64,000 bases of DNA from Candidatus Latescibacterota bacterium (GTDB lineage: Bacteria; Latescibacterota; UBA2968; SICM01). The notes beneath the pieces were generated by a model that saw only the letters and a program-made list of their open reading frames with translations, had not been told where the DNA came from and did not search any database. Both the position numbers and the translations under genes were made by a program. Location of the stretch: assembly GCA_965217865.1 (NCBI GenBank), contig CBDCJO010000002.1:5600001-5664000 (forward strand), in the 5' to 3' direction. This document shows, piece by piece, positions 7,919 through 63,901 of the stretch. Each line of letters opens with the position of its first letter. Position 1 is the first letter of the stretch.

Positions 7919-8553
7919 TACAGTTCCCGGGCTGTCTGTTGGGTCAAGTCCACCGAATCGTCTCGTAAAACCCGCCGAATCGTCTCTCCGATCTTTCGCA
8001 GGGCCCGTGCCCTATGGCTGATCCGGTTCTTGATGTCGGATTTCAAAACCGAAAATGAATCGGAGTAACCGGAAGGCACAAACAGCGGGTCATACCCAAA
8101 TCCACCCGTTCCCCGCGCTCTATTCAGAATCGTGCCTTCACATACGCCCTCTCCGGTGTGACAGGTTCCGTCCGGGAGGATAAAAGCCATCACGCAACGA
8201 AAACGGGCGGTTCGACTTTCCGGCGGGATCCCTTCCATTAAGCGCAGAAGTTTTTCATTATTCTCTCGATCCGCAGACCCGTCCCCGGCAAAACGCGCAG
8301 AGCGAACCCCCGGCTCGCCGTTCAACGCATCCACCTCCAACCCGGAATCGTCCGCCAAGGCGGCAAATTTGAGCTGGCTGGCAACCAGGGAGGCCTTGTG
8401 GATCGCATTGGATTCAAAGGTGTCCCCTTTCTCATCGATCTCCGGCACATCCGGAAAATCATTCAGGGTTCTCACCCAAGCCACATCCCCCAGGATCTCT
8501 CGGATCTCGCGCGCCTTGTGCGCGTTTCGCGTTGCAATCACGAGAGGGTTCAC
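7918..8553 (-). CDS. rdgB: Non-canonical purine NTP pyrophosphatase (XTP/dITP)
   Basis: [33 protein letters not shown]; lies directly downstream of rph. Confidence 0.95.
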
Positions 8554-9272
8554 GGTCGAAGCGCCTCCTGCTGAACGAGGAGGATCTCCCGGATCCCTGA
8601 CTCAGCCAGTTCCAGCATGGCGTCCATCTGTTTTCGATCGAATGGGGAACGCTCCGCCGTCCCTTGTACATCCACAAATGTTCCGGATCCGGTCATCACC
8701 ACGTTCATATCGACCTCGGCGGAAGAATCCTCTTCATAACAGAGATCGAGCATGGGGACGCCATCGACAATGCCCACGCTGACTGCCGCAACGGCATCTC
8801 TCATCGGATCCTCTTGGAGTTTGCCGTCTTCCAGCATCTTTTTCACGGCCTCTGACAGGGCCACATAGGCCCCGCTTACCGAGGCCGTTCGGGTGCCCCC
8901 ATCCGCCTGGATCACGTCGCAGTCGATCGTGATAGTCCGCTCGCCAATCTTTTCCAGGTCAACGACCGCCCGCAGGGATCGACCGATGATTCTTTGGACC
9001 TCCTGCGTCCTTCCCTTTGGCCTTCCGCTCCGGGCTTCACGGAAAACACGGGTTTTAGTCGATCGAGGCAGCATTCCATATTCCGCCGTCAACCATCCAG
9101 ATCTGGAACCGATCAAGAAGGGCGGAACCCTGTTCTCCAAAGTAGCCGTACAGATCACCTTGGTGATCCCGGTTTCGATCAAGGCGGAACCATCCGCGTG
9201 CAGCATGTAAGATGGCGTGATTCGAACAGGCCTGATCTGATCGAGGCTTCTTCCATCAAGTCGAGGGGACAC
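8550..9272 (-). CDS. rph: Ribonuclease PH
   Basis: [46 protein letters not shown]. Confidence 0.97.
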
Positions 9273-9335
9273 ACGGCCTCCCAGAAAAAGAAATCATATA
9301 CCGCTACCGCTCCCTGGAATTAAAAAAAAATACAA

Positions 9336-10241
9336 TCAAGCTTTCATTCTGGATTCTGACTCCTGACTCCTGTATTCTGCCTTTCGACTCCGGACTTTCA
9401 TCCTTCTGGTTATAGGGTCGAAATGCTCACGATAATCGGGGGCTTCAACGTGAATGACACGACACATCTCCTGAAGTCGGGAATAGATCCGTCCCCCGTG
9501 AAGCCCTTTGATCTCCTCATAAGGCCGGTTGGTGGTCACCAGAGTCAACCTTTCATGTTCATATCGCGTGTCAACAAGGTTGTAGAGCATCTCCTGCTCC
9601 CACTCGGTGTTTCGCTGAACGCCGAAGTCGTCGATCACCAGGCATGGCACGGTGCTCAACTCTTCAAGGATGGTCCATGTCTGGCCATAGCGGCCGCTCT
9701 CTTCATTGTATGTGCTCCGCAGTTTCTCAAAATATTGGAGGGAGAGGTCCAGGAACTTGCTCGGGGTTGCAAAGCGGAAGATAAGCTCGTTTAACATCAC
9801 ACAACTCAACATCGTCTTTCCATTTCCCGGCAGTCCATGCAGCAGGATACCCCTTGGACTTTCTCCACGTTGACGCGTTTCAATCAGGCTCATCACCATG
9901 GCCTTTAAATCTTGAGCCCCAACGATCTCTGCGCCGTCCGGCCCCACCTGATGGAAATCATCCAGGAACTTCCATTGATACTTTCTCGGGACGTTCGATT
10001 TCGCGAAAAGCCGCTGGACCTTAATAAGACGCAGGCGGAACGGCCGACAGGGGCACCAATGCGCCTCGAATTGCGCATCAAAATACTGGAAGGGGGTCTT
10101 TCCCCCGCATCGGCAGGCCTCATTCACACAGGAACAGAGATTTGTCTCCCCGAATTGTCCGACGACGACCTGGTTGTCGTAAAGATATCCGAGTCCGTCA
10201 CAAAGTCGGCATGCTCCCACACGATCCCTTAAGCCTTGCAT
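9336..10241 (-). CDS. DnaC/IstB-like AAA+ ATPase with Cys-rich N-terminal Zn-binding region
   Basis: CxxC, CxC and CxC/CPC motifs; Walker A GLPGNGKT; Walker B LVIDD; TTN; RIYSRL; DYR. Confidence 0.85.
   Translation of the reverse strand: MQGLRDRVGACRLCDGLGYLYDNQVVVGQFGETNLCSCVNEACRCGGKTPFQYFDAQFEAHWCPCRPFRLRLIKVQRLFAKSNVPRKYQWKFLDDFHQVGPDGAEIVGAQDLKAMVMSLIETRQRGESPRGILLHGLPGNGKTMLSCVMLNELIFRFATPSKFLDLSLQYFEKLRSTYNEESGRYGQTWTILEELSTVPCLVIDDFGVQRNTEWEQEMLYNLVDTRYEHERLTLVTTNRPYEEIKGLHGGRIYSRLQEMCRVIHVEAPDYREHFDPITRRMKVRSRKAEYRSQESESRMKA
9346..9397. repeat. Degenerate heptamer tandem repeat (TTCTGGA/TTCTGAC/TCCTGAC...) in the 3' end of the ATPase gene
   Basis: ttctgga ttctgac tcctgac tcctgta ttctgcc tttcgac tccggac. 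Confidence 0.6.
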
Positions 10242-17746: not shown

Positions 17747-18361
17747 ATGGCCCATTCACTCCCCGATCTCCCCTATCCTCACGATGCCTTGGAACCCCAT
17801 ATCGACTCCAGAACTATGGAGATCCATCACGGGAAACACCACAACACCTATGTGACGAACCTGAATAAAGCCCTTGCAGCCCACCCGGAACTTCAAGCCA
17901 AGAGCGTTGAGGACCTGATTTCAGACCTGAACAGCGTGCCCGAGGCGATCCGAACCGCCGTCAGGAACAACGGAGGCGGTCACGCAAACCACAGCATGTT
18001 CTGGCCGAGTATGAAAAAAGGCGGTGGAGGGAAACCTTCCGGTGACCTGGCTGCCGCCATCGATAAAGCTCTGGGGAGCTTTTCCGCCTTCAAAGAGCAA
18101 TTTTCAAACGCGGCTACAACTCGCTTCGGAAGCGGTTGGGCGTGGCTCTCCATGGATTCGGGGGGGTCCCTTGTTGTGGAATCAACGCCGAATCAGGATA
18201 ACCCTTTGACGGAGGGCCGGGTGCCCATCCTCGGCCTGGACGTCTGGGAGCACGCCTATTACCTGAACTATCAAAATCGCCGTCCTGACTACATCGCCGC
18301 GTTTTGGAATGTGGTCAACTGGGATGCGGTCGCGGATCGGTACAACAAAGCCCGTGGTTAA
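17747..18361 (+). CDS. sodA: Superoxide dismutase, Mn-type signature
   Basis: [15 protein letters not shown] (Mn-type), [19 protein letters not shown]. Confidence 0.93.
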
Positions 18362-18394
18362 AATCAGGCCTAATCCACCAGGGAGATTGACTCG

Positions 18395-18874
18395 ATGAGC
18401 GTTCTTGTGGGGAACAAGGCCCCCGATTTTACCCTGAAGAACAAGAACGATGAGGGGATAATAGACGTAAGCCTCTCGTCATTTCAAGGAGAGCAGAACG
18501 TTGTCCTCCTCTTTTTTCCGCTTGCCTACACAGGCGTCTGTACAGAAGAGATGTGTAAGGTGAGGGATGGGATCGGGGACTATCAAAATCTCAATGCTCA
18601 GGTCCTGGGCATCAGCGTGGATAGCCCCTTCGCACAGGAGGCCTGGGCGAAGGCGGAGAATCTGAATTTTCCCCTGCTGAGCGATTTTAACAAGGAGGTC
18701 TGCTCGGCCTACGGATCCCAATATGAAGATCTGCTCGGGTTCAAGGGGGTTGCGAAAAGATCCGCATTTGTCATCGACAAAGAGGGGGTCGTTCATTATG
18801 CATCCATATCCGACGATGCCAAGAAAATCCCCGACTTCAACGCCATTAAGGCGTGTTTGGAATCCCTGAGCTGA
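18395..18874 (+). CDS. Peroxiredoxin (AhpE/BCP-like)
   Basis: FFPLAYTGVCTEEMC (PxxxTxxC), ISVDS, LLSDF, KRSAFVID. Confidence 0.9.
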   Translation: MSVLVGNKAPDFTLKNKNDEGIIDVSLSSFQGEQNVVLLFFPLAYTGVCTEEMCKVRDGIGDYQNLNAQVLGISVDSPFAQEAWAKAENLNFPLLSDFNKEVCSAYGSQYEDLLGFKGVAKRSAFVIDKEGVVHYASISDDAKKIPDFNAIKACLESLS

Positions 18875-48172: not shown

Positions 48173-51100
48173 GTGTCCCGCCCGTCCCAGGCGATTGTGT
48201 AGAAACCTGTGGGCTGGAGTTCGTTCACAAGCTGCGCCACCTGCTGACCCAGGATGTTGTAGACCAGGATCGAGACCCGGGCATCCTCCGGGATCCCATA
48301 GCGGATCGTGGTGATCGGGTTGAACGGATTTGGATAGTTATGCTTCAGGAGGACCTGATTCGGAAGCAGGGACAGTCTTGCGGACGAAAGGTCGCCTGGT
48401 ATCCGCATCTCTCCCTCTGAATCCAGCAAAACCATCTCCGACACCTCTGCGTGCGGCTCCAGAGAGGAGACTTTCACCCGGAACCGCAGGTCGGCCAGGT
48501 TTGTTTCTTCCGAGGCTTCCCCTTCCGCCCCTTCCGACTCCTCCGCTTCGCTCACAATTCCCTCCCCGTAGTTCAAGATCACCGCTTCATTGATATCGGG
48601 CCTGATGACCTTTGCCAACAAGAAGATCGTCTCGTTGCCCGAACTGTCCTCCGAGATTACACGGTACTCGTAGGTCGTCCCGGACAACAGCCCCTCAAGA
48701 TCGATCCGTTGATCCAGGCCGGGATCCCCCGGGTCCGAGCCCATAAAGTCCGTTTCCCCGCTCTCTCGGTACTCCACCCGGGGCGTGCTCTCTTCGTCCA
48801 CGGACCAGAGCACCGTGACCGCGGTCTCCCCGATCCCCTCGACCCTTGGAACCCCCAGGACAACCGGGCTCTGCGTATCTCCCTCTGTCGTAAAACTCCG
48901 GACCGCCCCCTCCGCTCTCCCGCCCCTTCCGTCACCCGCGACCACGTGCCAGGTATAGACGGTGCTCTCTGAAAGGGGTCCGATCGAAAACACGTTTTCG
49001 ATCGTGCTCCCCACCTGCAACCGTTCACAAACAGGTCGTACGTGGTCGAGTCCCCCTCCGGGTCCGTCGCAGCCTCCCAGGTCAGGGTTGGATTCAGCGA
49101 AACGCCTGTCTCCCCCTCCCCGGGTGCGAGAGAAACCGGAGCCGTGGGGGAAAGGTTCGGGTCAACGACGATCAGGTCGTCGACCGTATGGGTGTCCGTA
49201 CCGGCCGGACCCGTGACCACAAGGGACACCGTAAAGCTTCCATCAGCCGTATAGGTGTGGGCCGGACTCTGATCCTCCGAACCGGTCCCGCTTAGCGCCA
49301 CGATCGCAGGAGTTTCCGCCCTGTGAACGATCGACAGCGATGCGGATTTCTCCCCCTCCGAATCGGGGGTGAAGCTCACCACGACAGGGACACTTTCGCC
49401 CGGCTGCACGGTGAACGTGGTCGCACTGACCGTGAACGCATCCCCATCGTCTCCGGTAACCGCGATATCCGAGACCACCAGCTCAGCGTCCCCGGAATTC
49501 CCGATCGTAAACGTTATCTCCGAGGCCCCCCCCACCTTCGTGTCCTCCATCTCCAGGACCGTCACCGAAAGGTTGATGATCGGGGCCGGCTCGGGCGGCT
49601 GTTCTGTCCCGGTCCCGGTCAACGCGAGCTCCAGCGGACTCCCTGCCGCGTCGTGGGAGATCGAGAGCGTCGCGGACTTCTCTCCCTCGTCAACCGGAGA
49701 GAACGTCACCGTCACCGTGGCGTTGTCCCCCGGGGCAATCGTGATCGTGACCTGGCTAACCGAGAATGCCTCGGAATCCGGGCCCGATACCGTCACCGCA
49801 GAGACATCCAGCGGGGCTGTCCGCGAGTTGCTCAGAATGAGCGAGAGAGACTTATCCCCACCGACCTGCACGTCCCCGAACGGGAGCGCCGCTGCGGAGG
49901 CCGTGATCGCCGGTGCGGCCGCGATCCCGGTGCCGGTCAGCGACACGGTCGTCGGACTCCCCGGGGCATTGTGCGAGATCGAAAGACTGGCGGATTTCCC
50001 GCCCGCGGTTGAGGGTGTAAATGTCACCGCAAAAACCGCAGCCGGCGCCCCTGCAGCGATTGTGGCCGTGATCGGAGAAACGGAGAAATGCGCCTGATCC
50101 GTCCCACCCACCGTGATCCCCGTGATGGAAAGATCCGCGTTGCCCGTGTTGGAAACCGAGAGAGAAAGCGCATTGCTCTGGGCCACCTGTACGTTCCCGA
50201 ATGCAAGATTCGTAGTGGAAAGAGATATGACTGGTACAGGAGGAGGTGGAGCGGTCGTCCCGTTGCCGGACAAGGCAATCGATGAGGGGCTCCCCGCGGC
50301 GTTGTGGGCTATCGACAGAGAAGCCGACTTCGCGCCAGCAGAGGTCGGTATAAACGTAACCGTAAAAACCGCAGCCGACGGCCCTGCAGCGATTGTGGCC
50401 GTGGTCGAAGAAACCGAGAACTGCGCCGCATCCGTCCCAGTCACTGTGATGCCCGTAACCGATAGCGTATCTGTCCCTGTGTTGGAAATCGATAAGGAGA
50501 GTGGCTTGCTCTGGCCGATTTGCACGTCCCCGAAAGGCAGAGGGGACGGAGAGATGGATATGACCGGTGCGATGGACCCCGCGGCCTCGCCCGAGGCCCC
50601 GCTCAGGTTCCCGGTGCTGTCAACAGCCGCAATCTTGAAGTAGAAGCTCCCGGCGGTCAATCCAATGTTTGTATATGATGTCCCGGGTTGGTCCACGCGA
50701 GCGATCGAATCCGGCGACGCGGGTGTAAATCCCGCAGTATTGCTTCGGTAGATGATGTAGTGGGAGAGATCAAGGTCCGTATTGGCCGTCCAGGTAAGGG
50801 CCATCTGGTTGTTCCCGACAGCAGCCGTCAGACCCGAGGGTGCGGCCGGCGGGGTCGTGTCGATCCCCGTCCCGGACAAGGAGACGGTTTTCGTCGGGGC
50901 CGTCGCGTCGTTGCTGGTGATCGTAAGGGTCCCCGTCTTCGAGCCCGTCGAAGTCGGCGCGAAAGTCACGGTCACCGTCGAGCTGTCCCCGCCGTTGATG
51001 TTGAAGCTCGGGGGCACCACAGGCGAGACGCTAAACTGATCCGAATCGTCCGTAAGACCCGATACGGTGAGCGTAAGGTCCCCGTCGTTCTTGATCTGAA

Positions 51101-54100
51101 ACGTTGCCTGTGCGGACCCTCCCTTCTCAACGTTCCCGAACGAAAGGGTTGACTCGGAAAGGGAGATTGTGGGTTCGGCAACCTGGTTCAGATAGACCAC
51201 GTTTGGAGAGCTGTTCCCCACCGCGATGTCCAGGTCTCCATCTCCGTCCACATCTCCTAACGCCAAGGATTTCGTATTGTCGTTGGTGGGTCCGAAGGTG
51301 GCGGACGTGGGGAAGCTTCCCGTTCCATCGTTCAGATAAGCCACATTCTGTTCGTTACCGTTCCCCACTGCGATATCCAGATCGCCGTCGTTATCCGCGT
51401 CTCCAATCGCAAAGGCATACGTGTTGTCCCCGCTTCCGAAGTTTTGAGATGTGCCGAATCCAGGCGTGCTGTTCCCGTCATTCAGATAAACCACGTTCTG
51501 TCCGCCGGTGCTGTTTCCCACGACGATATCCAGATCCCCATCCCCTTCAACGTCTCCTAATGCAACAGTCTGCGTTGCATCGTTCGTCGGACCGAAGTTC
51601 GTTCCCGTGGCAGGGAAGCTCCCCCCTCCGTCGATATACACCACATTCTGTTCGCCGTTGTTCCCCACCACAAGGTCCGGGTCCCCGTCCCCATCAACGT
51701 CCCCAACGATCACAGCTGTCGTCGCATCATTGGTTGGGCCAAAGTCGTCGGATGTGGGGAAAGCCCCATTCCCATCGTTGAAGTAGGCCACGTTCTGGGC
51801 GCTGCTGTTCCCCACGGCCAGATCGATATCCCCATCGTTGTCCAGGTCCCCGGATGCAACCGAAGACGACAAGTCGGACCCTGTCCCGAAGGCGTTGGAG
51901 AACCTGGAGAAGTCGGCCGGACCAATCCCTGCGGCAACGAGGAACTTCCACACGTAAGGGGCGATGGCCTCCCCGCCTGTTGATTGGACCCCGGAAGTCA
52001 GTGAGGCCTGGACTTCCTCGCCCGGCTTGAAATCCGCGGCCGGATCGAAGCTGATCACGGTCGTCCCCCCACCCCCATATGTCCCCGATCGCTCTCCGGT
52101 CAAGGTCCCGTGCACAACAAACGTGCTCGCGGTTCCGGCGTTCATGGCCTGGTTGAAAGTCGCGGTCACATTCGCCCCCACTAAGGCATCGATGTCGTTC
52201 TTCGGAGGGGCCACCGGACTCGGCGGAGGGATGGTGGTGGTTAAATTGTGGAACACCGAGAGGGTGCTGGATGAAAAATTTAGAACCCCCAGGTCGGGTT
52301 TTCCGTCTCCGTCCAGATCTCCAATTGCCACGCCATAAGGGCTAGTTCCAGTTGTGAAGTCGACTTTGCTGGCGAATGAGATCGTGCCGGAACTGCCCGT
52401 GTTGCGAAATATCGACACGGTGTTTGTACCGGAGTTGGGGGCCGCCATATCCAGCTTGTTGTCTCCATCCAGATCTCCAATTATAAGATAAGACGGATTG
52501 GTTCCGGTTGTGAAGTCGATTTTTGCAGCAAAAGAACTGGCGTCGATGGTACCGGCGGTGCTGGTGTTTCTTATGACCGATATGTTGTTCCCATCGAAGT
52601 TTGTGACGGCCAGATCGGATTTGCCGTCGCCGTCGAGATCGCCAATCGCAATCCGGTCGGGCCCTGTTCCGGCTGTGAAGTCGACTTTTGTAGCGAATGA
52701 GGAGGTTGTAATGGAACCCGACGTACTGGTATTGCGGAGCACCGATATCGTCGTTCCAGCGCCGCTACCATAATTTGTGAGAGCGATATCCCGTTTTCCA
52801 TCTCCGTCCAAGTCGCCAATGGCCAGACCACTGGGATCGGTTCCGGTTGTGAAGTCGACTTTTGCGGCAAAAGAGATGGTTCCGGACGTGCTGGTGTTGT
52901 GGAAAACCGAGACTGTATTTGAGACGGCATTCGTAGCGGCCAGATCGGGTTTTCCATCGCCGTCGAGGTCGCCGAGGACCAGAATACGCGGCGTTGTTCC
53001 CGGGGTGAGATCGACTTTTGTAGCAAAAGAAGAACCATTGATTGCCCCGCTCGCACTCGTATTGCGGAAGACAGAGAGGGTGTTGGCACTGAGGTTCGTG
53101 GTGGCGATGTCGGGTTTTCCATCGCCGTCAATATCCCCGATGATCGGTTCTATAGGTCCATTATCTGTTGTAAAGTCGACTTTCGCAGCCAGGGTGGTGG
53201 GATCGATCGCGGAGACGGAGGCCGTGAAAGTGGGCAGGAAGAACTGTGTGGAGATGGCCGTCCGGTTGTTCACCGTCACACTGATCGGACCGAACGTGGC
53301 GCCGGTCGGCACCGTGACCGTCAGGGAGGTCGCCGAAGCCGCCGTGACCGTGCCTTTGATCCCACCGATAAACACGGTGTTGTTGGCAGGTGTGGCATCG
53401 AAGTTCGTGCCGGTGATGGTCACCGAGGCGCCCGCAGCGGCTGACGTGGGCGTAAACGATGTGATCGTGGGCAATGCGGTGGTGAGGGTAAGGTTGTGGA
53501 AGATGGATACGGTGTTCGAATTCCCATTCGTCGCGACCAATTCGGGTTTTCCATCGCCATCCAGATCAGCAATGGCTACAAACCGCGGAGAGGTTCCAGT
53601 GGTGAAGTCGACTTTTGTGGCAAAGGAATTGGCATCAATGGTTCCGCTTGTGCTCGTGTTGCGAAACACAGACAGCGTATTTGCACTCTGATTCGTCACT
53701 GCCAGGTCGGGTTTTCCATCGCCATCGAGGTCACCAATGGCCACAGTCGATGAACCCGTTCCAGCAGTGAGGTCAACTTTTGTGGCAAAGGAATTGGCAT
53801 CAATGGTTCCGCTTGTGCTCGTGTTGCGATAGATTGATACGGTGTTTGAACTGAAGTTGGCCACGGCCAATTCGGGTTTTCCATCGCCATCGAGATCACC
53901 AATGGCCACGAACGATGGAAAGGTTCCTGCGGTGAAGTCAACTTTTGTGGCAAGGGAATTGGCATCAATGGTTCCGCTTGTGCTCGTATTGCGATAGATC
54001 GATATGTTGTTCGCAGTTCCATTTGCCGTGACCACATCTGGTTTTCCATCCCCATCGAGATCGCCAATCGCCACCGCCCGTCGATCAGTTCCCGTTGTAA

Positions 54101-55169
54101 AATCGATTTTTGTGGCAAAAGAGTTTGCATCGATGGTTCCCGATGTGCTCGTGTTGCGATATACAGACATGGTATTCGAGTTGTTATTGGCCAAGATCAA
54201 ATCGGATTTTCCATCGCCATCTATATCGCCTATTGCCGCGCTTCGTGGAGAAGTTCCAGTGGTGAAGTCTACTTTGGCAGATAGGGTCAATGCGTCGATG
54301 CCTGAGACTGTGGCTGTGAAAGTGGGCAGGAAGAAAGCATCCGAGATAGCGGTACGATTGTTGACTTGAACAGTGATTGGGGCGAACGTCGCGCCTGTCG
54401 GAACGGTGACGGTGAGCTGCGTTGTTGTAGCCGCAGTGACGGTGGCTTTTGTTGCGCCGAAGAAGACGGTGTTGTTGGCCGGGGTGGTATCGAAGTTGGT
54501 TCCGGTGATGGTGACGGAGGAGCCGACGACCCCCGAGGTGGGGGTGAAAGAGGTAATGGTGGGTGGATTCATCGCTGCTTCGAGCCCCATCATTCCGGCG
54601 GAATAGCTCTTATAGAAAAACTCACTGGCGCTGATGGTTAGTCCGTTGTTTGTCGCGAAATCGCCGCTACTGGACGCAAAGGTGATCGCGTCGAACCGGT
54701 CACCGTCGGACGGCGTGAAGCTGTTGATCAGAGTGACATTAAGCGTGCCGTCGAGTGTGGCTGTTCCACTGACCGCAAGCTGGTCGTACTCGGTGCTCAC
54801 AGTCGTACCGCCGATCTCGGAGTTCAGCGTTCCCGCGGAGGTCTGCGTGTAGTTTGCCCCCCCCGCCGACCGTAAAGCCGCTTCCCGATCCCACGGTCAG
54901 TGTTCCGGCATTGCTGATCGCACCCGCGCTCGTGAAGTTCGCGCCGTTCTTGATCTCGAAGCTGCCCCCGGATGCGTTGGTGGCGAAGTTGGCCAGGCCG
55001 GTTCCGCTCTGGATCTGGGCGCTCGCACCGTCAAGGATGATGGTCGCGGCGTTTGTGACTATGTCGGCCCCAGTGAAATTGAAAGTGGACTGGATGTCGT
55101 AGGTGCCGCCTGTCAGGGTCTGGGCGGAGAAGTTGGAGAAGCTTCCCGTAATGTCGATCGTGCCGGTCT

Positions 55170-58100
55170 GTACGTCCACCGTACCTGTATTGTTGAACGG
55201 ATTAGCGATGGTGGAAGTCCCCGTGCCCGCAGACTTGCGAAACGTGCCGCTGTTGTTGAAGGTCCCAGCTGTGCCGGCATTCCAGTTCAGGAGGTTATTG
55301 CTCGTGAGATTGAACAGCGCACCGCTCTGGTTGTTCAGAACGGATGAGTTGTTCATGTAGAAAGTCCCCGCGGTCCAGGTCATCGTGCCGTTGTTGTTCA
55401 GCGTGGCCGTGTCGAGGAAGTCGCTGCTCGTAGATAGGGTGAGGATCCCGTCGTTCGTGAAAGTCGTGCCGTTGAGGGTGTTACCCGACAAAGTAAGTCC
55501 GTTCCCGGTGAAGTTGAACGTCGCACCACCCCCGGTCGCCGTGAAGGTGCCTGTGTTTTCCAATGTCCCGCTGATCGTGCCGGAAAAAGATCCCGAGAAC
55601 GAGTGGACCCCACTGTGGGTGACTGTCGCGCCGGAGGAGACCGTATAGGTCCCCCCCCCGTGTGGGTCCCACCCCCCGTGAAAGAGAGCGTCCCGGACTG
55701 GCCTTCGATCGCTCCACCGGTGTTGTTGAATATATCAACGATAGTGGAAATGCCTGCGCCCGCAGACTTGCGGAAGGTTCCTGTGTTGTTGAAAGTCCCT
55801 GTTCCAGTGGCACTCCAGCTCATGGTGTTATCGCTTTGCATATCGAAAAGCGCCCCACTCAGGTTATTCAGAACCGCAGGGCTGTTGATATAGAAGGTAC
55901 CCCCCGTCCAGGTGATCGTCCCGCTGTTATCGAGCGTACGGGTGTCCAGGGTACTGGTGCCGGTGGGAACGGTGAGGGTCGCTCCGGATTGAATCGTGGT
56001 GACACCTGAGCCCGACATCGTGCCTGCAGACCAGTTCATACTCCCTGTCACCGTAATGGTGTCCCCCCCCGTGACCGTGCCCCCGGTGACCTCGAAGTTC
56101 GAGGTGGAAAGACCACTGTTTACCGTCAGGGTGGCCCCGCCCACACGAACCGGACCCGCCCCGGGAAGCGTGACTCCCGCATTGAAAGTATGAGAACCCG
56201 TACTGAAATTGAGAAGCGCCCCGGAGGACACGTCGAAGGCCCCGGTGCTGGTCCCTCCCGAACTCATCACCACGGTCCCCGTCTGGACTTCTACCGTACC
56301 TGTATTGTTGAACGGATCGTCGATGCTCGAAGTCCCCGTGCCCGCTGACTTGCGGAACGTGCCGCTGTTGTTGAAGGTCCCTGCTGTACCGGCACTGACC
56401 GACATGGTGTGGTTGCCCGTGAGGTCGAACAGCGCACCGCTCTGGTTATTCAGAACCGCGGAGTTATTCATGTAGAAAGTCGCGGCTATCCAGGTCATCG
56501 TCCCGTTGTTGTTCAACGTGGCCGTGTCGAGGATGTTGGTGCCCGCAGACAGGGTGATAATCCCATCGTTCGTGAAGGTCGTGCCGTTGAGGGTGTTACC
56601 GGGCAAGCTGAGTCCATTCCCAATGAAGTTGAACGTCGCACCTCCTCCGGTGGCCGTAAATGTGCCCGTGTTTTCCAATGTCCCGCTGATCGTGCCGGAA
56701 AATGATCCCGAGAACGAGTGGACCGCACTGTGGGTGACTGTCGCACCGGAGGAGACCGTATAGGTCCCCCCCGTGTGTGTCCCACCCCCCGTGAACGAGA
56801 GCGTCCCGGACTGGCCTTCGATCGTGCCACCCGTGTTGTTGAATATATCAACGATGGTGGAAGTGCCTGCGCCCGCAGACTTGCGGAAGGTTCCTGTGTT
56901 GTTGAAAGTCCCTGTTCCAGTGGCACTCCAGCTCATGGTGCTATTGCTTTGCATATCGAAAAGCGCACCGCTCAGGTTGTTCAGAACCGCAGGGCTGTTG
57001 ATATAGAAGGTGCCCCCAGTCCAGGTGATCGTCCCGCTGTTATCGAGCGTACGGGTGTCCAGGGTACTCGTGCCCGTGGGAACGGTGAGGGTCGCTCCGG
57101 ATTGGATCGTGGTGACACCCGACCCCGACATCGTGCCTGCAGACCAGTTCATACTCCCTGTCACCGTAATGGTGTCCCCCCCCGTGACCGTGCCCCCGGT
57201 GAGCTCGAAGTTCGAGGTGGAAAGCCCACTGTTTACCGTCAGGGTGGCCCCACCCACACGAACCGGACCCACCCCGGGAAGCGTGACGCCCGCGTTGAAA
57301 GTATGAGAACCCGCGCTGAAATTGAGAAGCGCCCCGGAGGACACGTCGAAGGAGCCTGTGCTGGTACCCGATGAGGTGAACAACATCGTACCGGATTGCA
57401 CCTGGACGCTGTCCGTGTTATTGAACGGGTTACTGATGGTGGAAGTCCCCGTGCCCGCAGACTTGCGGAACGTGCCGCTGTTGTTGAAGGTCCCTGCTGT
57501 ACCGGCACTGACCGACATGAGGTGGTCGCCCGTGAGGTCGAACAGCGCACCGCTCTGGTTGTTCAGAACTGATGAGTTGTTCATGTAGAAAGTCGCGGCT
57601 ATCCAGGTCATCGTGCCGTTGTTGTTCAGCGTGGCCGTGTCGAGGATGTTGGTACCCGCAGACAGGGTGATAATCCCATCGTTTGTGAAAGTCGTGCCGT
57701 TGAGGGTGTTACCGGGTAAGGTAAGTCCATTTCCAATGAAGTTGAACGTGGCACCCCCCCCCGGTCGCCGTGAATGTGCCCGTGTTTTCCAATGTCCCGC
57801 TGATCGTGCCGGAAAATGATCCCGAGAAGGAGTGGACCGCACTGTGGGTGACTGTCGCGCCGGAGGAGACCGTATAGGTGCCACCCGTGTGGGTCCCACC
57901 CCCCGTGAACGAGAGCGTCCCGGACTGGCCTTCGATCGTTCCACCGGTGTTGTTGAATATATCAACGATGGTGGAAGTGCCTGCGCCCGCAGACTTGCGG
58001 AAGGTTCCTGTGTTGTTGAAAGTCCCTGTTCCAGTGGCACTCCAGCTCATGGTGTTATTGCTTTGCATATCGAAAAGAGCACCACTCAGGTTGTTCAGAA

Positions 58101-59310
58101 CCGCAGGGCTGTTGATATAGAAGGTACCCCCGGTCCAGGTGATCGTCCCGTTGTTGTCGAGCGTACGGGTGTCCAGGGTACTGGTGCCGGTGGGCACGGT
58201 GAGGATCGCTCCGGATTGGATCGTGGTGACACCCGACCCCGACATCGTGCCTTGCAGACCAGTTCATACTCGAGGTGGAAAGCCCACTGTTTACCGTCAG
58301 AGTGGCCCCGCCCACACGAACCGGACCCGCCCCGGGAAGCGTGACTCCCGCGTTGAAAGTATGAGAACCCCCGGTATAGTTGAGAAGCGCCCCGGAGGAC
58401 ACGTCAAAGACGCCAGTGCTGGTCCCTCCCGAACTCATCACCACGGTCCCCGTCTGGACTTCTACCGTACCTGTATTGTTGAACGGATCGTCGATGCTGG
58501 AAGTCCCCGTACCCGCAGACTTGCGGAACGTGCCGCTGTTGTTGATGGTCCCTGCTGTACCGGCACTCCAGCTCAGGGTGTTGTCGCTCGTGAGATCGAA
58601 CAGCGAACCGCTCTGGTTGTTCAGAACTGCGGAGTTGTTCAGGTAGAAAGTCCCTGCTGTCCAGGTCATCGTGCCGTTGTTGTTCAGCGTGGCCGTGTCG
58701 AGGATGTGGGTGCCCGTAGACAGGGTGATGATCCCGTCGTTGGTGAAGGTCGTGCCGTTGAGGGTGCTACCGGGCAAAGTAAGTCCATTTCCAATGAAGT
58801 TGAACGTCGCACCACCCCCGGTGGCCGTGAAGGTCCCCGTGGTTTGCAAAGTGCCGCTGATCGTGCCGGAAAAAGATCCCGAGAACGAGTGAACCGCACT
58901 GTGGGTGACTGTCGCGCCGGAGGAGACCGTATAGGTACCCCCAGTGTGGGTCCCATCCCCCGTGAACGAGAGCGTCCCGGACTGACCTTCGATCGTTCCA
59001 CCGGTGTTGTTGAAGGTATCAGCGACGGTGGACGTGGTCCCCCCCGCGGACTTGCGGATCGTGCCCGTGTTGTTGAAGGTCCCTGCTAAACCGACACTCC
59101 AACTCAGGAGGTTATTGCTTTGCATATCGAACAGCGCACCGCTCAGGTTGTTCAGAACTGCAGAGTTGTTCAGGTAGAAGGTCCCACCGGTCCAGGTGAT
59201 CGTCCCGCTGTTATCGAGCGTACGGGTATCCAGGGTACTGGTGCCGGCGGACAGGGTAAGGGTAGCGCCGGACTGAATAATGGTGCTATCTGACCCCGAC
59301 ATCGTGCCGC
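55170..59310 (-). repeat. Intragenic tandem repeat, 1113-bp (371 aa) unit, about 3.7 copies
   Basis: Anchor TTGCGGA... recurs at 55768, 56881, 57995 and 59052 (spacings 1113, 1114, 1057). Confidence 0.9.
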
Positions 59311-59649
59311 TCGACCATACCATGATGCTTGTCACAGTCAGGGTCCCGGCTCCCGTCAGTGTACCACCCGAAACCGTAAAGGAGTCGTTGACCGTGGAAG
59401 CAGCCGCGATGGAGATGCTGCCGCCTGAAAGGACCAATTTTTCGTCGCTGGTCAGGCTGTTGATCGTGGTGGTGCCCGAGGCGTGAGTTATTGTGGGCGT
59501 CCCGCCAACGCTGATCGTGACATCGTCGGATACGCCCGGGAGGACATCCCCGCTCCAGTTGATCGCGTCGCTCCAGGAGACACCGTCGCCCCCGCCGTCC
59601 CAGGAGATGGCCGCTGCAGCGGCTAAGGTGGGGAGGAGGAGGGAGAAGC

Positions 59650-59673
59650 AGATTGAAGATTGAAGATTGAAGA
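59650..59673. repeat. (AGATTGA)3 heptamer repeat in the signal-peptide region of the giant gene
   Basis: agattga agattga agattga aga. Confidence 0.85.
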
Positions 59674-59801
59674 CCGGACAGACTTAGGCGAGATAAGAAT
59701 TGGTTTGGAAGGCGGTTTTTGTGGAGAAGGGTGTTCATGTGACCAACGTATTCATGAAATGAAGGCCTTAGGTAGTCAAATAACGCCTTCTCTTACATAA
59801 T

Positions 59802-59825: not shown

Positions 59826-60173
59826 GGAATACATAAAAGACATACCAATCCAATAAACAAAAAGACCCATCCCAACCGCCTGTGATCTTACCAGGGAGGC
59901 CTTTAGATGGGCAAAACAATCATTGAAAACATCCGGTCTGGTGAAATTCATCTCGGGTTCCGCCGAACTTTCCTAATGCTTGTACCTACAGGGCTTATCT
60001 ACAAAAGACAAGGTACCTTCACTTAGGAATCAGGTCAAGTATATTCTGTGGACATGGACAGGAATTGAAGATCGAGATTCGGCGGCAATGGCATACCTAT
60101 ATGCGCACCCTTCACCCCTGTTCGCCATCGGGTCTGAGAAAGATCCTCAGATAGACCTATTACCTTAGAGATT

Positions 60174-60275
60174 AGGTTGGAGAGGCTCGGTTTTCGGGTG
60201 CTGCGATTTACTGACGGTGATGTCAAGCAGATCTCGAAGGCGACCTGCATGGGGATAGATGAGAATGGGATATGA
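60174..60275 (+). pseudogene. DUF559 (Vsr-like endonuclease) C-terminal remnant
   Basis: Translates to RLERLGFRVLRFTDGDV; followed by CCCCTCC-N-GAGGGG palindromes. Confidence 0.55.
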
Positions 60276-60276
60276 C

Positions 60277-60398
60277 CCACCCCGCCCCGGCTTAAGTCAC
60301 GCCGGGGCACCCCTCCCAAGAGGGGATTTTGGTTGGCGTTTCTTGGAATACGCCATGAAAATGAAAATCCCCTCCTTGGAGGGGATTTAGGGGTGGGT
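60277..60398. repeat. Inverted pair of CCCCTCC...GAGGGG palindromic repeats of the kind seen beside DUF559 genes
   Basis: acccacccc...cccctcccaagaggggatttt and aaaatcccctccttggaggggatttaggggtgggt. Confidence 0.6.
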
Positions 60399-60536
60399 CT
60401 GATGAGGATGGAGTCCGGAATTGGAAAGATGAGAATGGGATATTGGTTGCGGCTGAGTGAAACGAAGCCCGCGATAGGTCTGACCCTAAATCGAATTCTG
60501 GTTATTCGTCACGATCATACTGAAAAGGATGGCCTC

Positions 60537-60564
60537 GTAGGGGGACGGCATGCCGTGCCCCTAC
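60537..60564. repeat. GTAG-type REP-like palindrome
   Basis: GTAGGGGGACGGCA-TGCCGTGCCCCTAC. Confidence 0.75.
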
Positions 60565-60586
60565 CTAACAGAATTCAAAATTCTTC

Positions 60587-60630
60587 TTGACATTCATATC
60601 CTTCTATTTTTATATTTAGCCTCACCAAAA
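60587..60630 (+). promoter_or_regulatory. Sigma70-type promoter overlapped by a DtxR/MntR-like operator
   Basis: TTGACA-N18-TATATT; TTTAGCCTCACCAAAA (60615-60630) resembles TTTAGGTTAACCTAAA. Confidence 0.5.
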
Positions 60631-60948
60631 CATTTAATGGGATATTTCTAACTCATTTTTATCAGAAAGAACTAATTCTGATTTCATTCCCTGAAATAAT
60701 CAAACTAGAAGGAAACCCAGTAAATCACCCCGCCCAAAGGGCGGGGCATTAACCACTCCCCTCCCCAAACAGATCCAACTGTAGGGGCCCTTTCTGCTCT
60801 TGAAGATGAAACCGAATATATCCTCTGATCACTTTAGAAGTTACCTTTTCGACTACGGTACGGACAAAACAGCCTTTTAGCTTACCCTCAGCAAGCTAAA
60901 CTTTTCCTCCCCTTCCAAAGGAAGGGGTATCCAAGTTCAAATACTTTC

Positions 60949-62169
60949 ATGAACAAATCCATGTTGCTCAAATATTTTAATCTGGGATGCCTCCTGTTAT
61001 TCATCTCTCTTTCAGGATGTGGCCTTCTTACCAAGGCCCCGCTGGACCCGGACACACTGGAGGCTCCCTTCGAGGGAATGACAAATACCCTTAACGCAGC
61101 ATTTGGCAGGGGAGACGAAAATTTCGATCACGTCTTCACGATTAATGAGGGCCTCGGCCCCATCTTCAACCAGGCGGCTTGTTCCTCCTGTCACCCCGGG
61201 GATGGGAGAGGAAACCCGGAAGTCGGGCTGCTGATTCGTTTCAGCCGGGGAAGTGACCTGATTCCGCTCCTGGGAGGCCAGCAGCTTCAGAACCGGGCAA
61301 TCCCGGGGGTTAGTCCCGAGACACTCCCTCCCGGCGTGGACACCTCCCCTCGACTGCCCCCACCGGTGTTCGGTGTGGGTTTGATCGAGACCATTCCTGA
61401 GCAGACTATCCTCCAATTGGCAGACCCGGACGACCTGGATGGAGACGGCATATCCGGCCGACCCAACATGGTCTTTTCCCCTGACTGGGTCCCTTCAACC
61501 GAAGTTGGTAGCGGCCCGGGTCCACAACTGGGCCGCTTTAGCAGAAAAGCCCAGGTGTCCTCGCTGCTCCAACAGATCGCGGAGGCGTATCACCAGGATA
61601 TGGGGATCACAAACGACTTTCTGCCGGTCGAGAACTACAACCCCCAGACCGCGGGTGCGGTCTCTTCCGGAGACAAGGTCCCGGACCCCGAGATACCAGC
61701 CAGCGTTGTGTTCGAAACCGTCACATACGTCAGACTCCTGGCCCCACCGCGTCGAGGTGAGATCACCGAAGAGGTCCGGAGGGGAGAGACACTGTTTACG
61801 AGCATGGCGTGTCACCTGTGCCACGTCCCAACGCTCCGCACCGGACCCAGCACCGTCCCGCAGCTCAACAATGTCGAAATCAATCCCTACTCGGACTTCC
61901 TGATTCACGATATGGGTCCGGAACTAGCCGACCACCGCCCCGATGGAGATGCCGACGGATTCGAATGGAGAACCGCCCCCCTATGGGGCACCAGGCTTGT
62001 CGCAGAAAATCTGGGTGGAAAGCCCTTTTACCTCCACGACGGCCGAACCTCCGACCTTTCAGAGGCCATAAGGCTCCACGGCGGGGAGGCGAAAAATGCC
62101 AGGAACGCATTTATAGCGCTTACTCAGGGTGACCAGCAGGCCGTTCTGGCCTTCCTCGGCTCCTTGTGA
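60949..62169 (+). CDS. Di-heme oxidoreductase (DHOR/DUF1111) family lipoprotein
   Basis: Lipobox LSGC; GLGPIFN..ACSSCH..DGRG, DGDGISGR.N, GRFSRKA, CHLCHVP, YSD.LIHDMG, WRTAPLWG, LHDGR, AIRLHGGEA. Confidence 0.9.
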   Translation: MNKSMLLKYFNLGCLLLFISLSGCGLLTKAPLDPDTLEAPFEGMTNTLNAAFGRGDENFDHVFTINEGLGPIFNQAACSSCHPGDGRGNPEVGLLIRFSRGSDLIPLLGGQQLQNRAIPGVSPETLPPGVDTSPRLPPPVFGVGLIETIPEQTILQLADPDDLDGDGISGRPNMVFSPDWVPSTEVGSGPGPQLGRFSRKAQVSSLLQQIAEAYHQDMGITNDFLPVENYNPQTAGAVSSGDKVPDPEIPASVVFETVTYVRLLAPPRRGEITEEVRRGETLFTSMACHLCHVPTLRTGPSTVPQLNNVEINPYSDFLIHDMGPELADHRPDGDADGFEWRTAPLWGTRLVAENLGGKPFYLHDGRTSDLSEAIRLHGGEAKNARNAFIALTQGDQQAVLAFLGSL

Positions 62170-62176
62170 GAGGCGA

Positions 62177-62599
62177 GTGAACCTTTCACGTCGATCATTC
62201 CTGATACAGGCCGGGGTTGCGGCCATCCCCCTGGTTCCCGGGTGCGCCACGATTGGACTCGCCACGCATAGGGTCCCCCTCGAGGAGGGCAAGGCCACGA
62301 TTCAGATCAAGGATTTCCCCGAGCTATCGGTGATGGGAGGTGGGATCAAGATTAGGGCAGGGGGATTGGCGGACCCGATCTTCCTGGTCCATCTTGATCA
62401 TGCTCGATATATCGCCCTCTCAGCAGTTTGCACCCACCTGGGGTGTCTTGTTCGAAAACAAAATACCTCCTTCCGTTGCCCGTGCCACGGTTCGACTTAT
62501 GACCTGGAGGGAAACGTCTTGCGGGGGCCGGCTCAAGAGCCTATGACGCCTTTGAGGACGGAGGTCGATGAAACTAAGGTGACCATATTTTTTGGTTGA
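62177..62599 (+). CDS. Tat-exported Rieske [2Fe-2S] protein
   Basis: GTG start; SRRSFL Tat motif; VPGC lipobox-like; CTHLGC and CPCHGS.Y...G. Confidence 0.9.
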   Translation: MNLSRRSFLIQAGVAAIPLVPGCATIGLATHRVPLEEGKATIQIKDFPELSVMGGGIKIRAGGLADPIFLVHLDHARYIALSAVCTHLGCLVRKQNTSFRCPCHGSTYDLEGNVLRGPAQEPMTPLRTEVDETKVTIFFG

Positions 62600-62644
62600 A
62601 TATCCTCAGGAAATCAGGAGGATTTAATAAAAAAAGGAATTCCC

Positions 62645-63901
62645 ATGATTTCAAGGAATCTAAAAACAGGCATACTCCTCTTTTATACGGCGGTTTTCGC
62701 AGGATGGGGAACCCCCGCTGAGAGTCAGGAAGTGAATACCGCGGACGATGCCCAGGCCGGAGCAACCCGATCGGTGGAAGGAATCTCGTCCGCCGACACT
62801 GTGTTTTCTTCCCGTCGCGGAAAGCCCGTCATTCGGGGCGGGTACGCGGACAAACCCTTCATCACCCGACTGGGCGGCCGAACGACGATCGGTGGCTATG
62901 CGGAAGCCGAATTTCGCTACGATCAGGTGGCAGGGATCACAGAGGAGGCGACCTTCGTGCCCCGTCGATTCAACCTCTTCACCTATTCCGCGGTATCCGA
63001 CAGGGTGAGCATTGGGTCGGAGCTTGAAATCGAGGAGATGGGGGAGGAGATCAAGCTGGAATATGCCACCATCGACTTCATCGTCCACGAAGCCGTGAGT
63101 TTCAGGGGCGGGGTGATCCTCTCCCCCCTCGGGAAATTTAACCTTGCCCACGACGCCCCATTTAACGATCTTGTCGATCGTCCTCTTGTCTCGACGGAGA
63201 TCATCCCGACGGCACTGTCCGAGCCCGGAATGGGACTGTTCGGGGCGCTCTATCCTTCCGAAGCGTCACGGATCACCTACGAAATCTATGGCGTAAACGG
63301 TTTCAATGAGGGACTTCTCGAAGACAGCGACAGGACCACGCTCCCAAACGGCAAGGGGACGGTCGAGGATAACAACAACCACCCTTCATTTGTGGGACGC
63401 GTCTCCATCAGTCCCAGAGAGGGGATCGAACTGGGGGGATCCTTCCACGCAGGACCCTATAACGTCTATGAAGTGGAGGGATTGAAAGTGGCAGAGCGCC
63501 AAAACCTCTCGATCTTCGCGATCGATTACGAACTCCGTCACGATCGCTGGGAGCTTCTCGGGGAATACGCACGGGCTCACGTGGATATTCCGAACGCCAT
63601 ATCCGACCTGTTCGCAAGGCGCCAGCAGGGCATCTATGCCCAGGTCAACAGTCACTTCGGGAGAGGGTTTTTTCCTGATCTGCCCCATTCCTTGTTTACG
63701 GGAACCTTCCGTTACGATTTTGTCGATTTCGATTCCGAGGCCACGGGTGATTCACAATGGAAACTCACCTTCGGCCTGAACTTCAGGCCCACCGAGGATA
63801 CCGTCTTCAAACTGAACTATATCCGGGGCCGGGAGACGGATGCGGTGCCGCTCTCCGTGGATAGTGCGGCCTTTCTATTCGGGGTCGCAACATATTTTTA
63901 A
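62645..63901 (+). CDS. Outer-membrane porin-like beta-barrel
   Basis: Signal peptide; GGYAE, RFNLF, SELEIE, G.FN..H, V.RP, IIPT; alternating beta-strands; C-terminal YF. Confidence 0.8.
   Translation: MISRNLKTGILLFYTAVFAGWGTPAESQEVNTADDAQAGATRSVEGISSADTVFSSRRGKPVIRGGYADKPFITRLGGRTTIGGYAEAEFRYDQVAGITEEATFVPRRFNLFTYSAVSDRVSIGSELEIEEMGEEIKLEYATIDFIVHEAVSFRGGVILSPLGKFNLAHDAPFNDLVDRPLVSTEIIPTALSEPGMGLFGALYPSEASRITYEIYGVNGFNEGLLEDSDRTTLPNGKGTVEDNNNHPSFVGRVSISPREGIELGGSFHAGPYNVYEVEGLKVAERQNLSIFAIDYELRHDRWELLGEYARAHVDIPNAISDLFARRQQGIYAQVNSHFGRGFFPDLPHSLFTGTFRYDFVDFDSEATGDSQWKLTFGLNFRPTEDTVFKLNYIRGRETDAVPLSVDSAAFLFGVATYF

Follow-up and report, generated by a model that had tools for sequence, protein, structure and literature searches.

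Bacterial manganese uptake has been described mainly at the inner membrane, through MntH, MntABC/TroABC and some FeoB proteins. DUF1111 proteins, in turn, are known from Fur-regulated iron operons (accessible parts of PMC3143127 and PMC9080828), and the described systems closest to the locus reported here are PA4370-PA4373 of Pseudomonas aeruginosa and SomB1-IrpAB-Ftr1 of Synechococcus, both metal-regulated envelope operons built on a DUF1111 di-heme protein and the latter having a co-regulated porin and permease (accessible parts of PMC3143127, PMC9080828 and bioRxiv 072470). Here, we analysed a 64,000-nucleotide stretch of a Candidatus Latescibacterota genome (assembly GCA_965217865.1, contig CBDCJO010000002.1, positions 5,600,001 to 5,664,000; hereafter, the window), near the 3' end of which lie three genes, referred to as the trio, for a DUF1111 di-heme c-type lipoprotein (DHOR), a small Rieske protein and an outer-membrane porin. 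The trio differs from the imelysin-DUF1111 systems in having a Tat-type Rieske lipoprotein instead of imelysin, a DtxR/MntR box instead of Fur control, a distinct short DHOR subfamily and importers of the FeoB, MntH or ZIP type. Judged from sequence comparison, it is best seen as a variant of those systems in which a Rieske protein replaces imelysin and MntR would be in control. We lean slightly towards reading the trio as the envelope front end of manganese acquisition, with a reductive conditioning step, that would feed an exchangeable inner-membrane importer. No paper on a porin-DHOR-Rieske trio was found in the literature searched, the coverage of which left out most subscription journals.

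The three genes are co-oriented on the forward strand with intergenic gaps of 7 and 45 nucleotides, as stated in a preliminary description of this sequence, whose outline of the three products was also reproduced. The DHOR gene (60949-62169) encodes a protein of 406 amino acids with a lipobox cysteine at position 24 and CxxCH motifs at positions 78 and 288; it belongs to PF06537 (216 bits against a cut-off of 22, E 8e-64) and, within this family, to a short subfamily of about 400 amino acids. The Rieske gene (62177-62599) begins with GTG and encodes 140 amino acids with an RRxFL twin-arginine motif, a lipobox cysteine at position 23, two disulfide-type cysteines and a [2Fe-2S] Rieske domain (PF00355, E 1e-11). 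A lipobox cysteine after a twin-arginine motif, in a genome that has TatC, is what is expected of a Tat-exported lipoprotein, and lipidation is thus predicted. The porin gene (62645-63901) encodes 418 amino acids ending in YF. No cytochrome b gene lies next to the Rieske gene, which is flanked by the DHOR and porin genes as had been pointed out; the bc-type Rieske/cytochrome b pair of this genome sits at C2:4.136 Mb, and no quinol-oxidising subunit or quinol dehydrogenase is encoded in the operon. The operon does continue past the window edge, as had been suspected, with four further co-oriented forward-strand genes whose coordinates are extrapolated beyond 64000: mntR, a DtxR-family gene with a FeoA-like domain (63988-64674), a two-domain multicopper oxidase (MCO) gene (64802-66004), a ZIP transporter gene (66027-67274), and a gene for a cupredoxin-like protein (67306-67719; E 1e-4, under the family cut-off). 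One contig of run X2 spans the stretch from DHOR to beyond the cupredoxin gene with zero differences, which is not independent support because the assembly may itself derive from run X2.

Synteny in other genomes had been named beforehand as a test of the module, and the trio was found to be widely kept. Of 40 relatives, 18 loci of the type of about 400 amino acids were fetched, one of which ends at a contig edge; the porin was present in 17/17 evaluable loci and the Rieske gene in 15/17. A scan of GTDB with a porin alignment gave 276 relatives, and the best 80 of these were examined, which come from Latescibacterota, Poribacteria, Gemmatimonadota, Bacteroidota, Ignavibacteria, KSB1, Zixibacteria, one Planctomycetota and one Acidobacteriaceae. 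Among the 64 porin-selected loci with enough upstream DNA, DHOR and Rieske were both present in 60 under a strict distance rule and in 62 when L096 and L105, with wider spacing, were counted, the conserved trio spanning Latescibacterota, Poribacteria, Gemmatimonadota, Bacteroidota and Ignavibacteria. The counts of the two sets are not independent, since the loci overlap and related genomes are included. The adjacency of DHOR and porin is more constant than that of DHOR and Rieske. The porin is 71% identical in L042, a Candidatus Latescibacterota metagenome-assembled genome. In the closest relative, L022, about 1.27 kb of extra DNA (8318-9560) lies between the Rieske and porin genes, spanned by a long open reading frame (ORF) without a Pfam match.

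Upstream of DHOR is a sigma70-like promoter, TTGACA-18-TATATT (60587-60616, forward strand, 11/12 consensus match), whose -10 element is overlapped, as the preliminary description had it, by a palindrome, TTTAGCCTCACCAAAA (60615-60630, no strand assigned), that covers the -10/+1 region. This palindrome has one mismatch to TTTAG-N6-CTAAA and is a predicted MntR operator of the DR2539 type: the crystallised operator of DR2539, a manganese sensor of Deinococcus that controls a manganese transporter, is ATTTTAGTCGCGCCTAAAAT with a TTTAG-N6-CTAAA core (accessible part of bioRxiv 10.1101/2024.02.12.579695), and the consensus box upstream of the trio loci shares this core. With at most one mismatch, the box occurs in 18/18 upstream regions of the DHOR-based set (200 shuffles: mean 0.375, maximum 3), a count to be read with the facts that the motif was first derived from these same regions and that the genomes are related. 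The 6-nucleotide spacer gave 21 sites and any other spacer from 2 to 12 gave at most two; a -35-like motif stands 25-28 nucleotides 5' of the box in 10/18 regions, including that of this genome. In the porin-selected set, the box lies within 330 nucleotides of DHOR in 43/62 loci (background: 6/990 windows), and 13 of the 19 DHOR loci without it follow an mntR or MCO gene of the same orientation. With a DtxR-family gene as the next ORF and the operator conserved upstream of orthologs, the metal regulation by a DtxR-family protein proposed earlier is supported.

Within its own genome, the operator score is unexceptional (matrix 14.9, rank 16). The genome has 116 sites with one mismatch or none, counted by strand, and the one at 60615-60630 alone overlaps a sigma70-like promoter; the promoter scan counted 3 promoters against a shuffle mean of 2.7. 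The sole perfect box of this genome, at C2:51394, precedes no evident metal gene. A genome-wide regulon was considered and discarded, the matrix scan giving no strong site (best 17.0; training sites 14.9-26.2), and per-genome box counts were rejected as evidence because a reversed control pattern was equally common or commoner in the genomes searched. A riboswitch in the long leader was likewise rejected: an Rfam scan of 8.7 kb returned only a chance snoRNA match (E 0.55), and the length of the leader is explained by insertion of an IS200-derived element, described below.

A sister module was also compared with the trio. In 13/13 loci fetched for the longer DHORs of this class (L040, L041, L122-L132), the gene is part of a porin-imelysin-DHOR operon. 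These operons share with the trio the three-gene layout of porin, lipoprotein and DHOR, and differ from it in having imelysin where the trio has the Rieske protein. In an unrooted tree built from 39 selected rows, a split with 100/100 support divides the two DHOR types, and the porins of the two modules are distantly homologous (21% identity, hhalign probability 72%). The MntR box was found in 0/12 evaluable upstream regions of the sister operons, and a different palindrome, TGTTTTA-N4-TAAAACA, in 7/13 of their loci; a scan for Fur boxes, made in the imelysin-type loci only and uninformative for the trio, found none. Conversely, one imelysin query found imelysin in 0/98 trio loci, and PF09375 was not found in this genome, in agreement with the earlier view of the module as imelysin-free. 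Six genomes carry both modules. It is this contrast in partner, box and DHOR type on which the view of the trio as an imelysin-DUF1111 variant rests. The modules offer an entry to the long-unsolved function of DUF1111: where both occur in one genome, they have different partners and operators, and the Rieske and imelysin types allow metal specificity and redox direction to be compared directly. As a side observation, the TGTTTTA-N4-TAAAACA palindrome stands upstream of porin-imelysin-DHOR operons in a single family (L123-L125, L128-L130, L132 and L164).

The regulator itself argues for manganese over iron. The best solved matches of MntR are 5zr4 (E 4e-46) and DR2539 (8pvt, E 4e-38), ahead of IdeR/DtxR. 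In alignments to 8pvt and 5zr4, its primary site D19/E111/E114/H115 corresponds to Asp11/Glu102/Glu105/His106 of DR2539, and it differs from DR2539 at two ancillary-site positions (His98 to Asp107 and Asp130 to Ser139). These ligands are the Asp/Glu set of manganese-type regulators and not the iron-type Met10/Cys102 (accessible part of PMC4805248); in P. gingivalis, the MntR-linked FeoB is a manganese transporter (same source). The DR2539 regulon and the P. gingivalis MntR-FB2 operon thus resemble the trio operon in operator core, primary ligands and targets, and unlike it, no porin or redox proteins are mentioned for them in the accessible parts of these sources.

A survey of perfect boxes, covering 30 loci among the matches listed, one per genome, placed a gene for a TroA-like binding protein 3' of the box in 10 loci (3 scanned; the best solved match of the L145 protein is TroA, E 3e-81), a membrane-anchored DtxR-like gene, such as stands first in feoB operons, in 6 or 7, and a DHOR gene in one. 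Within 8 kb of the porin, in the best 80 loci, we counted DtxR at 21, FeoB at 16, NRAMP at 5 (the one scanned passes the NCBIfam MntH cut-off), MCO at 4, three of which also have a ZIP gene, and P1B ATPase at 8-9. Manganese is therefore favoured over iron, since the box heads troA-like, feoB and mntH operons, with iron the less likely metal; DR2539 does bind DNA with iron in vitro as well (accessible part of bioRxiv 10.1101/2024.02.12.579695). The preliminary description had proposed uptake of iron or manganese; a role in metal uptake is likely, and the choice that it left between the metals leans to manganese on the strength of operator, ligands and targets. As a separate observation, L042 (2553-3581) and about 13 other loci encode, under an MntR box, a membrane-anchored DtxR-like protein with two FeoA domains, followed by a split FeoB whose G domain and membrane part are separate genes.

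That the cargo is Fe(II), or iron together with manganese, and the trio an IrpAB/SomB1-like iron front end under an iron-responsive DtxR protein is unlikely, but has several points in its favour. In addition to the Fur-regulated iron operons in which DUF1111 proteins occur, FeoB is the commonest importer neighbour, the pairing of an MCO with a permease recalls ferroxidase-permease uptake, and neither FeoB nor FTR1 was found in this genome, which is 96% complete and in which ZnuA/TroA and imelysin were not found either. Perfect boxes also stand by ferritin genes in two genomes. Besides the manganese-type ligands and the DR2539-type operator, the iron alternative is opposed by the troA-like and mntH targets, by the coexistence in six genomes of an imelysin-type module without the box, and by the two Fur-family proteins encoded here. 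The genome also has three distant NRAMP-family genes (by family search) and a second ZIP gene. One superoxide dismutase was found in it, closest to Mn-type enzymes. This enzyme, like the failure to find FeoB, ZnuA/TroA, FTR1 and imelysin, also counts in favour of manganese. At 17747-18874, a gene for a Mn-type superoxide dismutase is followed by one named by eye as peroxiredoxin-like.

The structure model of the porin (predicted local distance difference test score, pLDDT, 71) has 16 strands, and an L3-type segment folds into it. Its best Foldseek match is OprP (2o4v) of the OprP/OprO group (E 7e-13, 11% identity) and its Atlas cluster is labelled 'Porin family protein'; it scores 12.9 bits against Porin_O_P (PF07396), under the cut-off of 20.9, and a sequence search of solved structures gave nothing meaningful; it is treated here as a member of an unnamed family. 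It shares the 16-strand fold of OprP/OprO at only 10-11% identity and differs from them in a conserved acidic patch (E87, E126, E128, E130, E135, E139), which is countered by conserved basic residues. Another porin-like protein, ExtI of Geobacter, is encoded in a cluster with cytochromes according to the accessible part of its description. On the model, the trio porin is a solute channel and not a sheath of the size of MtrB. This bears on extracellular electron transfer, a possibility raised in the preliminary description, for which the trio would be a respiratory conduit of porin and cytochrome of the Mtr/Mto/Pio kind. The outline of a porin, a c-type cytochrome and an Fe-S carrier does resemble PioABC. 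MtrAB, MtoAB and PioAB conduits consist of a large barrel around a decaheme cytochrome, and MtrB is much larger, with about 26 strands; the trio has 16 strands in an OprP-like channel and two hemes, no quinol dehydrogenase in its operon, a predicted repression by metal and a linkage to nutrient importers. An Mtr-type conduit is hence argued against, and we consider it very improbable. The porin family is not confined to the trio: paralogs of 42-43% identity occur with FMN-binding and PepSY-TM genes, and at L124 (1637-4140; also L123 and L125) such a group stands directly upstream of an imelysin-type operon.

In 51 Rieske sequences, the twin arginines are nearly invariant, Cys23 is invariant and the disulfide-type cysteines are kept. 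Among solved structures, small Rieske domains of the b6f type come closest (PDB 8hn2 and 5cxm, the latter of which we take to be cyanobacterial PetC3). The trio protein has their compact domain and disulfide-type cysteines, and differs from them in its metal regulon, its invariant lipobox cysteine and the lack of a cytochrome b encoded beside it. In DHOR, both CxxCH motifs and His320, His363 and His377 are invariant in 116 sequences. His377 aligns weakly with the methionine of cytochrome c peroxidases (CcP) that is presumably the ligand of the second heme; in the CcP/MauG di-heme peroxidases, a fold of two domains holds a peroxidatic heme and a second one with His/Met or His/Tyr ligands. The alignment suggests a lower-potential, bis-histidine second heme in DHOR, which probably lacks the high-potential heme of CcP.

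These features also bear on a third explanation, that the trio serves a manganese-sparing periplasmic peroxide defence or oxidase, turned on under manganese shortage, in which DHOR would be the peroxidase, the Rieske protein its donor and the porin merely co-regulated. The Pfam label of the DHOR family is that of a putative peroxidase, the cell appears reliant on a Mn-type superoxide dismutase, and DHOR has a weak likeness to CcP/MauG in sequence and fold, all with E above 1e-4; Foldseek gave nothing at E ≤ 0.001 for DHOR, with weak CcP/MauG fold matches at best (E 0.02). The residue aligned with the CcP methionine speaks against it, as does the DHOR-porin adjacency, which is steadier than that of DHOR and its supposed donor. 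The imelysin-type DHOR, too, comes with a distant homolog of the porin, and this constant pairing points to a transport-linked role. We regard a peroxide defence as quite unlikely.

The genes downstream of mntR suggest how the trio relates to importers. In the two closest relatives, the gene order is trio, mntR, membrane-anchored DtxR-like gene and feoB. In this genome, the first ~37 residues of the MCO are homologous to the N-terminus of the membrane-anchored DtxR-like protein of the relatives (42% to that of L042), and 3' of the cupredoxin gene lies a 55-codon remnant of the 3' end of feoB (68029-68193, extrapolated, forward strand), with 72% amino acid and 79% nucleotide identity to the closest relatives. 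From the DtxR-derived N-terminus and the feoB remnant we infer that the MCO-ZIP-cupredoxin cassette replaced feoB in place, with the trio and the regulator kept. This exchange suggests that the trio works upstream of whichever inner-membrane importer is present. A terminator-like hairpin lies 3' of the cupredoxin gene and the feoB remnant. Between these two, a short ORF (L001 9764-9976, window-extrapolated 67763-67975) resembles, by eye, a decayed DtxR helix-turn-helix, for which Pfam gives no support. At L088 (1-830), another genome carries, near its trio, the same chimeric oxidase (82% amino acid and 88% nucleotide identity), which lies on the opposite strand and has a box of its own.

Under the manganese front-end reading, MntR would leave the box over the -10/+1 region when manganese is short and the operon would be transcribed. 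The porin would admit the metal or a metal complex, and DHOR and the Rieske protein would pass single electrons to turn Mn(III/IV) into Mn2+, the form that is carried by the inner-membrane importers FeoB, MntH and ZIP. The potential of a disulfide-type Rieske cluster would be enough for Mn(III/IV) and poor for Fe(III) oxides, which fits a reductive manganese role. The cassette would then provide three candidate proteins, an operator and a regulator for manganese supply from oxides or Mn(III) complexes in diderm bacteria. A more far-reaching version, which we find rather doubtful, is an uptake system devoted to the assimilation of manganese through reduction of Mn(III/IV), equivalent for this metal to what the imelysin-DUF1111 system is for iron, with a manganese-selective porin and plug-in importers. 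If true, at least six mostly uncultured phyla would have a machine for manganese-specific uptake at the outer membrane, in which a surface or periplasmic di-heme/Rieske relay makes Mn2+ at the mouth of the porin.

A number of observations weigh against the manganese front-end reading, in addition to the derivation of the box from the regions in which it was counted. Mn2+ is soluble and it is not evident why a redox step would be needed; Fe2+ is also carried by FeoB, NRAMP and ZIP proteins; and the MCO of the ZIP cassette would oxidise divalent metal, contrary to a reductive scheme. In vitro, any of Mn, Zn, Fe, Cd and Ni allows DR2539 to bind DNA (accessible part of bioRxiv 10.1101/2024.02.12.579695). 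Of the 30 perfect-box loci, 10 have nothing metal-related 3' of the box and two have ferritin genes by it. L104 is without DHOR and Rieske, and the Rieske gene is absent from L028, L030 and L079. The structure model of DHOR is poor (pLDDT 51, from 16 sequences). A cation-selective pore was considered and the claim dropped, since the invariant residues on polar strand faces are 9 acidic to 8 basic, even though all invariants together are 20 acidic to 11 basic. With regard to ferritin, perfect MntR-type boxes by ferritin genes that adjoin an imelysin-type operon were seen at L144, L146 and L164, in two genomes.

The leader of the operon contains a non-autonomous, IS200-derived element of 230 bp (60719-60948, forward strand), directly 5' of the ATGAA that holds the DHOR start codon. 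The family comprises sizes of 230, 317, 531 and ~605 bp, with 33 left-end matches in the genome besides this one; there are 15 copies of the 230-bp element and 12 of the ~605-bp class, one scanned copy of which encodes an IS200 Y1 transposase. ATGA stands directly 3' of 32/32 paired copies, and the element can land on start codons because it always inserts just before ATGA, usually ATGAA. Many copies are identical, which suggests a recent spread. What was probably the ribosome-binding site of DHOR before the insertion, AGAAGG plus 6 nucleotides (60707-60718, forward strand), as judged from its sequence and the element boundaries, now lies 230 bp from the ATG; the insertion may thus weaken expression of the operon or of DHOR in this genome. 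A strain contig of run X3 is without the 230-bp insertion. In a check of expression, for which one RNA run with a small share was at hand, contigs of run X1 cover four short pieces at 90-99% identity.

Elsewhere in the window, the minus strand at 48657-59738 holds a very large, repeat-rich surface-protein region that frameshifts split into several frames. Upstream of the promoter, several short palindromic repeats lie at 60130-60570, each with 4-18 copies in the genome.

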